A stretch of 22,731 nucleotides of DNA from a virus. Shown here in pieces: positions 15,103 to 22,731 of this stretch. Made by a program: the position numbers and the translations under genes. How positions within the stretch are numbered: the first letter of the stretch is position 1; each line of letters opens with the position of its first letter. Under the pieces are notes generated by a model that made no database searches, had not been told where the DNA came from, and saw nothing but the letters and a program-made list of their open reading frames with translations. The stretch is from UHGV virus genome UHGV-1353574. One strand, 5' to 3'.

Positions 15103-15543
15103 TCATATTTGCTCCGTTTGTTTCTCAACGCCCAGTGCGGCGGCATAGATACCACGAGCCATGCGATCATCACAAAATCCATACGTGAATAATCCAGCAA
15201 TGGCATCAAGGCGTTCCTGTGTTGGTGTGACAGGCACAGACACCGTTTGAACTTCAGTCTTTTCGGTGCCTTCCGGTTTCATCAAGACCTCCATTTCTTG
15301 ACGACTAACAACAATGGTTTCTACCTTATCTTCATCGATCAACATTTCGTTCAGAAGATCGTATCCCAACACTTGTGTATCGCCGATATATGTCTTCGCG
15401 TTCAGTTGTGCTTCGATACTTAACACCCTCTGAGCTGTAAGGCCACCAGAGGAGAACGGTACTGGATAGAAGGCGGAACGCACTTGGGCACACCCATTTA
15501 CGCTGTAACGAACCAGCAAGACATCACACCATACGCCAGCCAT
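15103..15543 (-). CDS. hypothetical protein (147 aa)
   Basis: Track start 15561 would overlap the upstream gene by 17 nt. The ATG at 15543 has GGAGGT 5 nt upstream and sits 1 nt after the upstream stop (TAATATG), so it is preferred. Confidence 0.6.
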   Translation of the reverse strand: MAGVWCDVLLVRYSVNGCAQVRSAFYPVPFSSGGLTAQRVLSIEAQLNAKTYIGDTQVLGYDLLNEMLIDEDKVETIVVSRQEMEVLMKPEGTEKTEVQTVSVPVTPTQERLDAIAGLFTYGFCDDRMARGIYAAALGVEKQTEQI

Positions 15544-15544
15544 A

Positions 15545-16207
15545 TTACACCTCCACCGCATGAGACTTCAGGAGTTCATCAATCTCTTTCTGCCCCATGT
15601 ATGAGAACGGGGTGCGCTGGTAGAACGCCCAGAGTACTAACTGGACAACAGCACGGGAACGGGTTTCGGCCGTCATCACCAGGCCACTGAAATGAGGAGA
15701 CTCAGCTGTCCATTGTATCTCTTCGCCCAGGTCTTGATTACAGGTCACCGAGATGCGGAACTTGTTGCACAGATTGTCGACTTCTTTGTACGCATCGGTA
15801 GACACACGAAGTTGTTCCGCATGTGCCCACGGAGTTGTGACGATTCTTTCACCCAACGTCTTTTCTGAAACGAACCAATCAATAGATTGGGTAAACTCGC
15901 TAAAATGGTCGATACGATAAATACAGTCTCCCCCTTCCATAGAACGCATGGCATGATAGCGAGCGTCAATTTCATTGTTGTGCATAGCGTTGAAGTCGAT
16001 GAACACGCGACGCGCCAGCACAACATCTTCTGGTTGAAGTGCCAGGAAATCGTTCAGGCGGCTATAATGGAGGATATTGGAACCGTCGTGGCCACGTGTG
16101 CAATATGCGTAATAGCTACCGATACGGGTGTGGGTAATATAAGACAACGGGGCGAAGAATAATCCGTCAGGATCAGGACCGACGATAATAGAATAAAGTT
16201 TTTCCAT
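15545..16207 (-). CDS. hypothetical protein (220 aa)
   Basis: Track ORF from 16306 would overlap the upstream gene and a hairpin; the ATG at 16207 is preceded by the recurrent CTATATC-ATG context. No recognisable motif. Confidence 0.55.
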   Translation of the reverse strand: MEKLYSIIVGPDPDGLFFAPLSYITHTRIGSYYAYCTRGHDGSNILHYSRLNDFLALQPEDVVLARRVFIDFNAMHNNEIDARYHAMRSMEGGDCIYRIDHFSEFTQSIDWFVSEKTLGERIVTTPWAHAEQLRVSTDAYKEVDNLCNKFRISVTCNQDLGEEIQWTAESPHFSGLVMTAETRSRAVVQLVLWAFYQRTPFSYMGQKEIDELLKSHAVEV

Positions 16208-17169: not shown

Positions 17170-17496
17170 TTAACCCGAAACTTTATTTTGAAATCCGACA
17201 AAGTCCTGGGCAATCCCCCGACAATACATCAGGTCTTTCTTCGTTTGTGGACTGTTATCAGCCGCAGTCAGCATCATGGGAAGATCCAGCGCATTCTCTA
17301 TCTGATCAACACTGAACAGATCAAGGCGCTTCAGCTCCCCCTCGAAGTCGGACAGGAGGATAGATGTGTCTTTGTCATCTGGGTGGAACTGCTGATACGT
17401 CTCCATCCATGCCACACATGTGTTCAGTTTGGACGGTGGCGCGGCGTTTACACACCCGGCTATCAGTACCAACAAGAGCAGGATTTTACATTTCAT
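17170..17496 (-). CDS. putative lipoprotein (108 aa)
   Basis: ATG at 17496 with AAGGAG 8 nt upstream, overlapping the upstream stop (ATGA). N-terminus MKCKILLLLVLIAGC carries a lipobox (LIAG-C) after a hydrophobic signal peptide. Confidence 0.65.
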   Translation of the reverse strand: MKCKILLLLVLIAGCVNAAPPSKLNTCVAWMETYQQFHPDDKDTSILLSDFEGELKRLDLFSVDQIENALDLPMMLTAADNSPQTKKDLMYCRGIAQDFVGFQNKVSG

Positions 17497-18710
17497 CACT
17501 CGTTCTCCTTCATCATATTGTCGCAGTCAACACGAGTCTGCTGGAGTTCGCGCGACATGCGGGGATCATCAAGGTTCACGCTCAGATTCGTGGCCAGGTC
17601 TTTCAGACCGTTCTGAACACGATCCTCAAAATAATAATCGTTCTCAACCAGCCAGGCTCTGAGACCAAGAGCGCGGGTGCGCCATTCCTTCTTCAGGACG
17701 CGATCAGAGGTCTGCGTGGCGCTGTATTCGAATACTTTGACGCACTGGTTGCCATCGTTGATGAGGTTCAGGTGGCGGCGACCAACCTGCACACCCTTCT
17801 GTAATGCCGGAGAAGGGAGCGAACGGCACTGTCTGACTGTCATTCGGCCTTGGGTGCCCATTCGGCCAGTCATGATTAAATCGCCAGCCTCCATGCCTCC
17901 ACGGTTAAATTCGTCGTCATTGAGGTAGCCTTTGAGGTTATAGGCTCCCTGTTTGTAACGGTTGAACTCAATTCCGGCATTGACGACAGCAGTGGAGACG
18001 TTGCCTGTGTTCCAGAGTTCAGCGAAGTTCTCTATGGAACCAGACTTGTCGATGGCAACCGCCTGGGAGAACCCAGCACAATAGGAAAGGTCGGACCACA
18101 GTTTATCACCTGTGGAGTTCAGCTTGGCAGCGGCGGGTAATGCCAGACCAGCCAGCACAACCCCGAGGATTAAACGTTTCATGGCGATTCTCCTTATTTC
18201 ATTGGATGAAATGATAGGCGGCTCACCATGTTGAGTAAAGGGATTCAATAAACTATCGTATTCAGAAACGGGTATCACTGACCGTTCTGTATCGCACACC
18301 CTGAAACTGTTTAGCGAGTTTAACAATTCCATCGCTGGCAAATCAACTTTGTAGACCTTCATGCGCTGTTTGCCGTCCATGTTCAACGCAGCGACAAATC
18401 GGTGAGAACCGTCAACAACGTAATTGTCAGAAGACACCCAAACTCGACCCATAGGTTTCTTATTTCTGATCTGCTTCATAATCTTCCAGACCTTCATTTT
18501 ATTGATTTCGTTCTGGGTAAGACGAAGCATTTTGATGGGCACTTGCACAGCATCTATGGACACGCCGTTGTCTTCAAGATATTTGTGAAAATCTTCTTGT
18601 TTGTCGGCATCGATTTGCGGCATAGAAGAACGAGAAAGCCCGAGGTTCCCAACAGGAATCCTCAGGCCGTTAATGATGTTCAACCAGTCAATAAAAGATG
18701 TAAGGAACAT
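17496..18710 (-). CDS. ParB-like N-terminal domain fused in frame to a signal-peptide-led C-terminal domain (404 aa); possible internal second start at 18182
   Basis: ATG 18710 with GAGGTG RBS. N-terminal 176 aa carry a ParB/Srx-like motif (YVVDGSHRFVAA). At 18182 an in-frame ATG with AAGGAG 8 nt upstream begins MKRLILGVVLAGLALPAAAK, a signal-peptide-like segment. No stop separates the two parts. Confidence 0.6.
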   Translation of the reverse strand: MFLTSFIDWLNIINGLRIPVGNLGLSRSSMPQIDADKQEDFHKYLEDNGVSIDAVQVPIKMLRLTQNEINKMKVWKIMKQIRNKKPMGRVWVSSDNYVVDGSHRFVAALNMDGKQRMKVYKVDLPAMELLNSLNSFRVCDTERSVIPVSEYDSLLNPFTQHGEPPIISSNEIRRIAMKRLILGVVLAGLALPAAAKLNSTGDKLWSDLSYCAGFSQAVAIDKSGSIENFAELWNTGNVSTAVVNAGIEFNRYKQGAYNLKGYLNDDEFNRGGMEAGDLIMTGRMGTQGRMTVRQCRSLPSPALQKGVQVGRRHLNLINDGNQCVKVFEYSATQTSDRVLKKEWRTRALGLRAWLVENDYYFEDRVQNGLKDLATNLSVNLDDPRMSRELQQTRVDCDNMMKENE

Positions 18711-18902: not shown

Positions 18903-19562
18903 TTATACCTCGTCTTCTTCAGGTCCACCGTCAATCAGGATACGAGCGGTGTCGAAAGTTTCCCCGCCCGTGTTCAACAGCTTGGTTAGATCATCAAGAG
19001 TACCGACAGGACCAAGATCAGCCTGGCGGAGAACGAACTCGAGAAGCCCGTAGAGCGCTGATTGGAATCGGCTGTTGTCGATATCGTTCTTTATTACCAT
19101 CAGGCGTAAGATGTTCTCTGACTGAGTATGGCCAACACACGCCTTGTCTCTGATCATCTCCTTGATAGAACTTCTCTCGGATGGTGTCATAACGTACCCC
19201 CGACAGAGATCAAGAACTCTTCTTGCATGGTCTTGACCGGGTGGTGGTTGCGGGTTTTCGAACATGAAGCCCCAGCCACCGTCGGCGACGTTGCCAAAGG
19301 TCTTGACGCCAAAGGACTTCGTCCCGTTGGAGCAGGAATAGATGTCCAGGACGTATGGGCTACCCTGATTGTCGATCCCACGATTCACGTCGTCTGATAC
19401 GCAGCGCTCAATCATCTTCCCGTTCTTATACAGAACGAGGTCTTGGCCATACGCCTTGAAAGCATAAACACCGTTGGTAGACACTCCGGTGATGACAGGA
19501 GGGGCGGAAACAGCAGCAAAGGAAGCGCCCAGCAGGGCAACAGCGAGGATTAACTTTTTCAT
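18903..19562 (-). CDS. exported hypothetical protein (219 aa)
   Basis: Track start 19583 is TTG; ATG at 19562 gives N-terminus MKKLILAVALLGASFAAVSA, a typical Sec signal peptide resembling the internal MKRLILGVVLAGLALPAAA of the preceding gene. Mature part contains several Cys. Confidence 0.65.
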   Translation of the reverse strand: MKKLILAVALLGASFAAVSAPPVITGVSTNGVYAFKAYGQDLVLYKNGKMIERCVSDDVNRGIDNQGSPYVLDIYSCSNGTKSFGVKTFGNVADGGWGFMFENPQPPPGQDHARRVLDLCRGYVMTPSERSSIKEMIRDKACVGHTQSENILRLMVIKNDIDNSRFQSALYGLLEFVLRQADLGPVGTLDDLTKLLNTGGETFDTARILIDGGPEEDEV

Positions 19563-19586
19563 GATATAGTCTCTTGGTTTCAAATG

Positions 19587-19614: not shown

Positions 19615-20121
19615 TTATAGGGTAACAAGTGATACGGTAAAAACCATCGTCCCGTCTGTTGCCATTTTTCTTGAAACTGGTATGACGCGAGGCTGGCAGA
19701 ATATCCATTCTTTCTCCATGGACGCCAAGTCCAGCATATCCATTTCTGATTCATCGCCTTTGTTCACAAATTTTTCTAGAGAACCATAGACATTAAGCCC
19801 CTCCGGGATTCTGTTTCGATGTTTGTAACAAATGCGGGCAACAGCTTGGGTTCCGTACGATTTAGAAAATTTTTTGGCCACATGCTTCAGTTCACTGAAG
19901 CTAAGGCAAGAATCCCATGTCTGGAACATGTCGCCTCGTTCAAACATCATCCCTAAACGCGCAACGTCCTCTTTAGGCAACCCGCGATAAAGTGTGGTCG
20001 TCTGTGGTTCGCGCAATTCTTGCACCAGATCACGGACGGCAGGGGAAACAGTACCGGGGCGCATGATGTGGGACTTATCATGGACGAGGTAAAATAAATC
20101 TTGAATTTGTTGATCGGTCAT
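19615..20121 (-). CDS. hypothetical protein (168 aa)
   Basis: Track start 20142 is TTG; ATG at 20121 with AGGAA RBS and the recurrent ACTATACC-ATG context. Contains LYRG ... S-x-S ... ESE residues that could be read as an R-S-E ADP-ribosyltransferase-like pattern, but this is weak. Confidence 0.6.
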   Translation of the reverse strand: MTDQQIQDLFYLVHDKSHIMRPGTVSPAVRDLVQELREPQTTTLYRGLPKEDVARLGMMFERGDMFQTWDSCLSFSELKHVAKKFSKSYGTQAVARICYKHRNRIPEGLNVYGSLEKFVNKGDESEMDMLDLASMEKEWIFCQPRVIPVSRKMATDGTMVFTVSLVTL

Positions 20122-20145
20122 GGTATAGTTCCTGCATTTCAAATA

Positions 20146-20516: not shown

Positions 20517-20536
20517 TCCCCAACGTTTGTTGGGGA
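20517..20536 (-). terminator. rho-independent terminator after the ACP-like gene
   Basis: Perfect 8-bp stem TCCCCAAC / GTTGGGGA with 4-nt loop; minus-strand RNA followed by UUUUUACUUUUAG. Confidence 0.55.
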
Positions 20537-20542
20537 CTTCTG

Positions 20543-20866
20543 TTATTTGCGCAGGGCAACCACGAGTTCAGCGAGTTCACCCATGGTCGGGTCATCACCT
20601 TTACTACCCAGCCAACCGTCGTCGATTTCGACCTGAAACTCTTCTTCTAGTTCCATTACGATTTCGATGGCATCCAGTTCGTCACCGCCGAGGTCTTTCT
20701 TGGTACGGAGACCAGCCAGCTTGTCCAGGGCGTCCTCGTTCTGAGATGCCACGTCGTCCAGCAATTTGCGCTTGTCATCGTCACGCCACAGATCCATATT
20801 CAGATTGTCAGTGGCGTACTGAGCCAGATGACGCATGACTTCAACATATGTTGGTTTACTGCTCAT
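20543..20866 (-). CDS. acyl-carrier-protein homolog lacking the phosphopantetheine-attachment serine (Ser->Glu), 107 aa
   Basis: ...KDLGGDELDAIEIVMELEEEFQVEIDD... aligns by eye with E. coli AcpP ...[24 protein letters not shown]...; the conserved Ser is Glu (GAA, rc of 20678-20680). ATG 20866 with GGGAGAAG RBS, 1 nt after the upstream stop (TAG-C-ATG). Confidence 0.7.
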   Translation of the reverse strand: MSSKPTYVEVMRHLAQYATDNLNMDLWRDDDKRKLLDDVASQNEDALDKLAGLRTKKDLGGDELDAIEIVMELEEEFQVEIDDGWLGSKGDDPTMGELAELVVALRK

Positions 20867-20867
20867 G

Positions 20868-21473
20868 CTACTTCTCCCAAAGAAAGGCGGGTTGCCCCGC
20901 CCGTTGGATTAGATTTTGATTTTCTTTCTCTGTCAGTTCGGCAGTGACCTTGTACTTCACGCCATCCACTTCAACTTCCATGGTGGACTCTTCCAGGTCG
21001 AGGTCGGTGAACCAGCCGTGGCCAGCAACGATACCATACACCACTTTAGACAGTGTCTTGTTCAGGGCACGGACTTCGGTGATGGCCGCCTTGGCAGCAG
21101 CGTCGATCCAGTTTTCGATCAGCTGTTTCTGTAAGGCTTCAGGCACGGCAGTGATCATAGGAGACTTCACGAATGCTTCGTACTCTTTCAGAGCATTGGC
21201 GATGAACAAGTCACCAGCATTGAGTTTCTTGTTCTCTGCGATCTTCTTCTGTACTGCCGCGATGCTCGGTAGTGAAGACGCCCCGGCGATCTTCACGTTC
21301 AGCTCACGGCTCATGTAGAAGTCGGTAGACTCTTTGGTCTCAGTCTTCGGTGAGAAGCCGTAATCGCGGATGCCGTAGGAGGACAGGAACTCGGCCGCCT
21401 CAGCGCCGTACTGTACTGCCAGGCCTTTGGCGTTACCCTTACCAACCAGGGCGTCTCGATAGAACTTCAGCAC
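20868..21473 (-). CDS. C-terminal segment (about 201 codons) of a large gene that appears split by a +1 frame change; alternatively a separate gene with a GTG start
   Basis: Track ORF starts with GTG at 21473; the first ATG is at residue 54. The upstream ORF ends 35 nt into this frame, and the two frames can be joined at an A-run (minus strand CTGAAAAGG, plus strand tttt at 21487-21490). Confidence 0.5.
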   Translation of the reverse strand: MLKFYRDALVGKGNAKGLAVQYGAEAAEFLSSYGIRDYGFSPKTETKESTDFYMSRELNVKIAGASSLPSIAAVQKKIAENKKLNAGDLFIANALKEYEAFVKSPMITAVPEALQKQLIENWIDAAAKAAITEVRALNKTLSKVVYGIVAGHGWFTDLDLEESTMEVEVDGVKYKVTAELTEKENQNLIQRAGQPAFLWEK

Positions 21474-22731
21474 CTTCTGCTTGCCTTTTCAGGGCTTCCA
21501 GACGGACATTATCCGCAAAGAACTGAGCAGCACTGATGTTCTTGACCATGGCGCGGTTGACCAGCGGTACGCTTTCCAGGTTCAGGACAAACACTTCTGG
21601 ACCACCAAACACGTGGACGCCCATTTCGATCAGCTTATGCACGACTTCGATATCAGCCTTGAACGGCAGAGTCTTCACGTTAATGATACCGTCTTTGACG
21701 ATGGTGTAGTTGCGCCACTGGAAAGTATCCAGTTCTTCAGGCAGGCCAAACTTCTTCTGTGCGAATTCAGGCACAGCCACAGTACCGTGTTGAATTGTAC
21801 GCACACTGATGTTCGGGCGCTCGGAGTTATAGACCAAATCACTGATTGGCACAACACCCAGATCGTTGGTAGGTTCGAACGTCGGGTTCCACTCTTCGTG
21901 CTCTGCCAGCTTGAGAGCCAGGGCTTTACGCTCTTCTTTGGACTGAGCATTCGCGATCTGTTCTGCCAGCTTGTCTTCGGTGTCGTCGGTTTTCTGCACA
22001 GTACCGCGCCCGATGCTCTTGTAGGAGAACATCGGATGCTTGGTAGCAACAGGCACACCAGCTTCAGCCAGGTACGTCAGCACATCAACGACGGTGGTCG
22101 CATCTTCAGCTGGAACCAGGTCATAGTCAATACCGTCAACGCCGCGCAGCTGGTCGTCAACAATCGCCTGTACCAGATCGTTCTTGATGTTGGAGTAGTC
22201 CTGCTTGGTGAAGCAGTTGCTGTACTGTTTGATGAAGCGAACGTCGCCCGTCTTCTTCAGCGCAGCCCAAACCAGATCTGCGTCCATAGTGTGTACACCG
22301 TAGAACGCCAGCACATATGCCGCCTGGATGTCCGTCAGGCTATCCATCTGGTCGATCATGTTAGGGTTTACAACCCACAGCTTGGTGACGCTCTCAGGGA
22401 TGCTCACGTGGCCGATAGGATGGTCTTCATCCGGCTGTACCGCCAGAACAGTTGCTACGCCGTTTTCAACATAGATGGCGTGGGTGTATAGCAGAGGCAC
22501 ATCAACAACCACCTTCGGCACTGATGACTTCAGCACGTTTTCCAGTTCGGTCTGGTATTCGGTCTGACCTTCGGCAAACACGTGAGTAGCACCAGAGAGT
22601 TCGGCCATCTGCGCCAGCAGTTCTCGGTTACAGTACCAGCCATATTCGATGAAAGTAATGTTATCGAAAGCAAATGGCAGGGTCTCAGCAACCAGTAGAA
22701 TTTCGTTGGTACGCCAGCAGTTGTCATACCC
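21439..22731 (-). CDS. hypothetical protein, internal/3' part (5' end beyond window end); upstream part of the split large gene
   Basis: Track ORF 21439..22608 starts at the first ATG, but the same frame stays open to position 22731 (...GYDNCWRTNEILLVAETLPFAFDNITFIEYGWYCNRELLAQ-MAELSG...), so the gene begins outside the window. Stop TAA 21439-21441. No motif recognised. Confidence 0.6.
   Translation of the reverse strand, partial: GYDNCWRTNEILLVAETLPFAFDNITFIEYGWYCNRELLAQMAELSGATHVFAEGQTEYQTELENVLKSSVPKVVVDVPLLYTHAIYVENGVATVLAVQPDEDHPIGHVSIPESVTKLWVVNPNMIDQMDSLTDIQAAYVLAFYGVHTMDADLVWAALKKTGDVRFIKQYSNCFTKQDYSNIKNDLVQAIVDDQLRGVDGIDYDLVPAEDATTVVDVLTYLAEAGVPVATKHPMFSYKSIGRGTVQKTDDTEDKLAEQIANAQSKEERKALALKLAEHEEWNPTFEPTNDLGVVPISDLVYNSERPNISVRTIQHGTVAVPEFAQKKFGLPEELDTFQWRNYTIVKDGIINVKTLPFKADIEVVHKLIEMGVHVFGGPEVFVLNLESVPLVNRAMVKNISAAQFFADNVRLEALKRQAEGAEVLSRRPGW

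Follow-up and report, generated by a model that had tools for sequence, protein, structure and literature searches.

An acyl carrier protein homolog of Ackermannviridae phages with an acidic residue in place of the phosphopantetheine-attachment Ser, a possible mimic of host ACP

A 107-aa ORF on the minus strand of the analyzed window (UHGV virus genome UHGV-1353574; the window is the whole stretch of 22,731 nt) is, by its profile matches and its predicted fold, a true homolog of acyl carrier proteins (ACPs), in which the Ser that carries phosphopantetheine is replaced by Glu. Comparison of homologs indicates that the loss of Ser is a fixed, selected trait of the family, which is present in essentially all Ackermannviridae genomes searched. 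With Glu or Asp in place of the attachment Ser, a holo form is impossible, and a protein of this sequence is unable to become holo-ACP by the canonical reaction. The best explanation, which we put forward tentatively, is that this protein is a mimic of host ACP which cannot be acylated, is possibly phosphomimetic, and engages host proteins that bind ACP.

Identity and fold of the ACP-like protein

The features of the ORF are as follows.

20543..20866, minus strand: ACP-like CDS, ATG to TAA, 107 aa; ACP four-helix core with an insertion of about 27 residues between helix I and helix II
20629..20695, minus strand: helix-II region DLGGDELDAIEIVMELEEEFQV (residues 58-79), by which ACPs recognize their partners; best-conserved segment of the protein
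20678..20680, minus strand: codon GAA, encoding Glu63 where E. coli AcpP has Ser36 (the phosphopantetheine-attachment Ser); Glu or Asp in all family members aligned

The protein matches the Pfam PP-binding profile PF00550 with 26.0 bits (gathering cut-off 20.8, E=1.1e-5), the match spanning residues 58-101 and profile positions 26-66 of 67; a match to PP-binding_2 is sub-threshold. The match to phrog_4154, 'acyl carrier protein', is full-length (E=2.4e-57, residues 1-107 on profile positions 1-108 of 108), and the window protein is a full-length member of this Ackermannviridae family (UniProt E1XTD1, phage ViI), with no structural difference from it. A profile built from 29 family members retrieves only acyl carrier proteins from PDB (1hy8 from B. 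subtilis, E=3e-8; E. coli AcpP, about 7e-7). In the HMMER alignment to PDB ACPs the helix-II region reads 'dlGGdeLDaieivmeleeef', with 'dlGGdeLD' placed onto 'DLGADSLD'.

The AF2 model is all-helical, with a mean pLDDT of 75. The top Foldseek matches of this model in PDB are all ACPs, the best being E. coli AcpP complexes (6n3p and 6u0j, the FabZ and FabD complexes; TM 0.65-0.70 normalised on AcpP). The E-values of these matches are weak (0.4-1), as is expected because the ACP domain is small (75 residues). In BFVD the best match is the 'Acyl carrier protein' E1XTD1 of phage ViI (TM 0.86). Thus, both checks suggested in the initial annotation, the PF00550 search and the structure prediction, support the ACP homology that it claimed: the Pfam match is above the gathering cut-off, the PDB profile matches are ACPs, and the predicted fold has AcpP as its closest PDB structure.

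Compared with E. coli AcpP and other ACPs of type II FAS, the protein has the same four-helix fold and similar acidity (pI 4.26, net charge about -14), and its helix II, DLGGDELDAIEIVMELEEEF, matches that of AcpP at 14 of 20 positions. It differs in the residue at the attachment site and in the insertion between helices I and II, while R54-x-K56 and W85..G87..DDPT are specific for the phage family. Moreover, it reaches only half of the NCBIfam equivalog cut-off for AcpP (TIGR00517, 34.6 bits vs 70.45), and the other NCBIfam AcpP models (NF002149-51) give 25-33 bits vs cut-offs of 66-106.

Glu and Asp at the attachment site

HMMER places Glu63 on the attachment Ser, and MAFFT alignment with E. 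coli AcpP gives the identical register. Among 28 non-redundant homologs (55-97% identity) this position is occupied by Glu in 26 and by Asp in two, with no Ser. In full-length relatives at 33-50% identity, found when 1.8 billion representatives were searched exhaustively with a profile (P0042-P0047, P0049, P0062), again only Glu or Asp is seen. The codons at this site are GAA, GAT or GAC throughout the family, which rules out a sequencing error at the Ser codon. The initial annotation had read GAA at the conserved Ser position, had argued that it is no single-base error, and had named Ser in related phages as the observation that would speak against it. The reading holds in both alignments, and no family member has Ser. 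Repeated interchange of Glu and Asp, with nothing else at site 63, speaks for a requirement for the negative charge as such.

The gene evolves under constraint (dN/dS 0.11-0.24 in unsaturated pairs), and the alignment of 29 sequences, down to 56% identity, contains 29 invariant columns. In helix II these are L59, G60, G61, D62, L64, D65, I67, E68, E74 and E76. The acidic recognition helix, which was said to be retained, is indeed the best-conserved part of the protein, D62, L64, D65, E68, E74 and E76 being among its invariant residues. Outside helix II, the invariant motifs are family-specific, namely R54-x-K56, W85-x-G87 and D91-D92-P93-T94.

Residues about 24-45 of the insertion (about 20732..20797 in the window) are hypervariable among otherwise near-identical proteins. 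For example, the proteins of the window and of phage ChubbyThor differ at most of these positions and are nearly identical elsewhere. Recombination or diversifying selection could be the cause.

Distribution and relatives

The window comes from an Ackermannviridae (Vi1-like) phage: the region shows 90-98% identity to phages of this group that infect Enterobacteriaceae (Enterobacter phage fGh-Ecl02, E. coli phages AV101 and ZQ1), and the ACP-like protein is 100% identical to that of E. coli phage vB_EcoM-ZQ1. A tblastn search finds it in 277 phage records, essentially all from Ackermannviridae, including Vi01, CBA120 relatives, Dickeya LIMEstone-type phages and Klebsiella Taipeivirus phages. 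Of these 277 records, 271 contain the ORF intact and at full length, and many of the 277 annotate the protein as 'acyl carrier protein'.

The nearest outsiders with the 'DD-PT' loop motif (P0058, P0061, P0063, P0065) keep the DSL Ser, and the two that were looked up, P0058 and P0065, come from phage or mobile-element contexts. Ser-bearing phage ACPs in general (phrog_5934-type proteins, the carrier protein of Caulobacter phage phiCbK, P0058, P0065) share with the Ackermannviridae family the ACP fold and the phage or mobile-element origin. P0058 and P0065 also share the loop motif between helices II/III and IV, while they differ in the retained Ser, in the lack of the long N-terminal insertion and in the lack of a vWA neighbor. 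The existence of such proteins makes descent from a Ser-bearing ancestor plausible. Judged by these similarities, the most plausible ancestor of the Ackermannviridae protein is a genuine ACP of a phage, with subsequent loss of Ser and gain of the insertion of about 27 residues between helices I and II.

A protein of the Glu type is also encoded by an unrelated phage contig (P0057, L016 5001-5297). It is nearest to phrog_5934, has no long insertion and has no vWA neighbor, so the Glu trait is not tied to the vWA gene. Other ACP-like proteins with Glu or Asp for Ser occur sporadically outside the family (P0052, P0054, P0057, P0130 and others), one Ser-less acidic example being the 'acyl carrier protein' WP_165956069.1 of Streptomyces hainanensis. 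Cluster look-ups of other matches of this type gave mostly metagenomic singletons. Acidic pseudo-ACPs that lack the Ser may be a recurring phenomenon.

The upstream vWA-domain gene and the spacer

The surroundings of the ACP-like gene contain the following features.

20909..22731, minus strand: gene of a vWA/MIDAS-domain protein (733 aa in relatives), cut by the window end; frame broken by two private 1-nt A insertions
20885..20902, minus strand: GC-rich hairpin GGGCGGGG-CAAC-CCGCC followed by TTTCTTT, terminator-like, between the vWA and ACP-like genes
20871..20878, minus strand: Shine-Dalgarno-like GGGAGAAG, 4 nt upstream of the ACP-like ATG, read from the sequence
20517..20536, minus strand: hairpin TCCCCAAC-AAAC-GTTGGGGA followed by TTTTTACTTTT, terminator-like, just past the ACP-like stop codon; conserved in relatives

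The upstream gene, described in the initial annotation as uncharacterised, in fact encodes a protein with an N-terminal vWA domain (PF00092, residues 20-184 of the 733-aa protein of relatives). Its N-terminal part of about 127 codons, with most of the vWA domain, lies beyond the window end. The MIDAS motif is complete and near-invariant (D24-x-S26-x-S28, T97, D128). The AF2 model is confident (pLDDT 85.6), and still no function could be assigned to this family past the vWA domain.

The vWA gene precedes the ACP-like gene in every Ackermannviridae-like locus examined, including those with only 33-39% ACP identity (L004, L005, L015). The vWA family is represented in 465 phage records, and of these about 190 are more distant (below 60% identity), being mostly from phages of about 175 kb like T4-like RB43, plus Shewanella phage Thanatos-1. 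In four distant loci inspected (RB43, Thanatos-1, L013, L014) no ACP-like ORF was found within 3 kb of the vWA homolog. The pair is thus obligatory in neither direction, the gene for P0057 being the converse case. The conserved adjacency is weak evidence for the two-component module that had been suggested, because the genomes are collinear across the region, and the four distant loci and P0057 speak against such a module being obligatory. The family is also found at loci L012 and L018, and some records name its members 'tail protein' or 'minor tail protein', for which support is not apparent.

The two genes had also been described as coupled through a TAG-C-ATG junction. This junction is literally present in the window, where an extra A in the A-run 20920..20923 shifts the upstream frame past the true stop TAA at 20909..20911 (…TEKEIKI-TAA) into the spacer and on to the TAG beside the ACP ATG. 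A second 1-nt A insertion, at about 21486-21489, splits the upstream gene into ORFs of 389 aa and 201 aa. Neither is seen in relatives: the first extra A is absent from 27/27 matching phage records and the second from 30/30, and both are probably homopolymer sequencing or assembly errors. In relatives the spacer is 42 nt long and holds the terminator-like hairpin and a separate GGGAGAAG Shine-Dalgarno sequence. Translational coupling is therefore rejected, the junction being private to the window and produced by the frameshift.

The 20885..20902 hairpin is annotated as 'terminator' in phages Maynard and Marshall. In the loci with 33-39% ACP identity its position is kept with entirely different stem sequences (L004 5150-5204, L005 5942-6007, L015 4951-5007), which points to a conserved attenuator or an element of RNA stability. 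Between the vWA and ACP-like genes we found no promoter-like site. The two genes are therefore likely to be co-transcribed, and the ACP-like cistron is probably transcribed from the vWA gene onward, through the hairpin. The next gene has a promoter-like site, located downstream of the 20517..20536 hairpin. Terminator-like hairpins on both sides, together with its own ribosome-binding site, indicate that the ACP-like cistron is not translationally coupled to the vWA gene.

Several other features of the neighborhood were observed. Three ORFs on the minus strand (17496..18710, 18903..19583 and 15103..15561) each match two different PHROG families end to end, examples being a phrog_2859 fragment with phrog_4260 (annotated as i-spanin in relatives) and phrog_5474 with phrog_4458. 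Further frameshift-type fusions in the window are possible. A 175-aa ORF two genes downstream of the ACP-like gene (19615..20142, minus strand) matches only C-terminal positions 1265-1425 of 1480 of phrog_832, 'RNA polymerase ADP-ribosylase' (Alt-like), and may be a stand-alone ADP-ribosyltransferase-related domain. In relatives, NAD salvage genes (nicotinamide phosphoribosyltransferase and ribose-phosphate pyrophosphokinase) are located a few genes upstream of the vWA/ACP-like pair (L001 11682-14197, L005 987-3502).

Possible function and alternative explanations

As a mimic of host ACP, the protein would be a soluble, very acidic pseudo-ACP in which the ACP fold is retained along with the helix-II surface through which host AcpP docks. 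Glu or Asp in position 63 would imitate the negatively charged phosphodiester at Ser36 of holo-ACP, i.e. act as a phosphomimetic substitution; such a role is plausible because only Glu and Asp are tolerated at this site. During infection the protein would fill ACP-binding sites on host proteins, neither delivering nor accepting an acyl group. The candidate targets are glycerol-3-phosphate acyltransferase (PlsB) and MukB, possibly also AcpS, Lpx and Fab enzymes, and the outcome would be that host lipid metabolism or another ACP-dependent process is redirected or shut down. We infer the binding to a host partner, the choice of partner and the effect on the host, which may be inhibition, activation or recruitment.

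Among known partners, PlsB is inhibited by apo-ACP, as is growth (PMC3896788), and MukB is bound and stimulated by apo-AcpP as well as by holo-AcpP (PMC8602292), while certain other AcpP partners, e.g. SpoT, do not bind apo-ACP (PMC3896788). The decoy or inhibitor role proposed in the initial annotation would agree with the inhibition by apo-ACP. No phosphopantetheinyl transferase, synthase, acyltransferase or adenylating enzyme was found among the window ORFs scanned, nor within 3-8 kb in three annotated relatives. Several observations speak against a mimic. In particular, the insertion of about 27 residues and the family-specific R54, K56, W85, G87 and DDPT 91-94 could define a different, phage-specific partner. 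Moreover, the score is far below the AcpP equivalog cut-offs, and the fixed position downstream of the vWA gene fits a ligand of the vWA protein equally well. The literature search found no usable Ackermannviridae transcriptome for expression timing.

In integrin I-domains, acidic ligand residues complete the metal coordination of MIDAS. The ACP-like protein may be a dedicated ligand or regulatory subunit of the neighboring vWA protein, with Glu/Asp63, exposed at the start of helix II, completing MIDAS coordination and the ACP fold serving only as a scaffold. This seems to us unlikely, if less so than the other alternatives, and it is not mutually exclusive with the mimicry of host ACP. It is consistent with the constant gene order in Ackermannviridae-like loci, with the intact MIDAS motif and confident model of the vWA protein, and with the likely co-transcription of two genes having no promoter-like site between them, and the restriction to Glu and Asp suits a metal ligand as well as a phosphomimetic residue. 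Still, the loci of RB43, Thanatos-1, L013 and L014 have no ACP-like gene near the vWA gene, the Glu-type protein of L016 has no vWA neighbor, and region-wide collinearity weakens the argument from adjacency. The genes are separated by a terminator-like hairpin with no translational coupling, and the closeness of helix II to that of host AcpP is left unexplained. A generic acidic early protein, i.e. a DNA mimic or another anti-defence decoy for which the ACP ancestry is irrelevant, is an improbable alternative. The low pI and strong negative charge fit it, as does the setting among small genes of unknown function, next to the Alt-like ADP-ribosyltransferase fragment and, in relatives, near NAD-salvage genes; phage DNA mimics targeting SMC complexes are documented (PMC7617805). 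However, AcpP is equally acidic, so that charge does not discriminate, the top fold matches are all ACPs, and conservation is strongest precisely on the ACP recognition helix. The defence and anti-defence profile libraries gave no significant match to the protein (best PADLOC match, E=0.023), and no DNA-mimic anti-restriction protein of the Ocr or ArdA type is among the Foldseek PDB or BFVD matches, acidity being the only common feature.

Retention of the ACP fold and the invariance of T94 would also agree with a protein that is still a carrier and receives its modification at a different residue or in a non-canonical way. This is very hard to credit, as T94 corresponds to the usual Thr that caps helix IV of AcpP at its N-terminus, the 29-sequence alignment has no other invariant Ser, Cys or Lys, and no transferase or acyl-handling gene is located nearby. 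Equally poor is the case for a decaying, functionless relic of an ancestral phage ACP, for which the Ser-bearing phage ACPs with the 'DDPT' loop motif (P0058, P0061, P0063, P0065) could be cited. It is effectively refuted by conservation, namely the low dN/dS, the 29 invariant columns in 29 sequences, the intact ORF in nearly all of the 277 records, and the occurrence of Glu or Asp only at the Ser site.

The mimicry of host ACP can be compared with the T7 DNA mimic that inhibits MukBEF, which is likewise a small acidic phage protein in the binding site of a host ligand (PMC7617805). The T7 protein mimics DNA, while the ACP-like protein, known here from its sequence and a model, would mimic the protein cofactor ACP. 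A broader version of the same explanation is that an Ackermannviridae-wide, phosphomimetic, non-acylatable mimic of the hub protein ACP jams or re-routes the host ACP interactome, with PlsB, lipid A synthesis, AcpS or MukBEF as targets, possibly delivered or regulated via the MIDAS protein. We regard this version as more doubtful than mimicry as such.

Naming and significance

In the literature searched, the Ackermannviridae 'acyl carrier protein' appears as annotation-table entries only (PMC3220722, PMC10892097), and neither a remark on the lost Ser nor a functional study came to light. In one table of virion proteomics the ACP-like and vWA proteins are represented by one peptide apiece, which does not suffice to regard either as structural. 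In databases the family already goes by 'acyl carrier protein', a name suggesting that its members act as carriers, which they cannot do. The Ser and the association with synthase or transferase genes are missing and the score is below the equivalog thresholds, so the protein should not be filed under this name; an accurate label is 'ACP-like pseudo-carrier'.

Hundreds of Ackermannviridae genomes carry the gene as 'acyl carrier protein', implying an auxiliary role in lipid metabolism that the protein cannot perform, and many of these phages are candidates for therapy or biocontrol directed at Salmonella, E. coli O157, Klebsiella and Dickeya. If the protein is indeed a mimic of host ACP, it would represent a host-takeover strategy for which we found no report in the literature searched and, as far as our searches show, the first viral mimic of a protein cofactor. 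It would then be a natural, stable 'permanent apo/holo-mimic' ACP, useful as a tool for studying ACP-partner recognition, and would indicate an ACP-dependent step that is worth blocking in Gram-negative cells, which bears on antibiotic targets.
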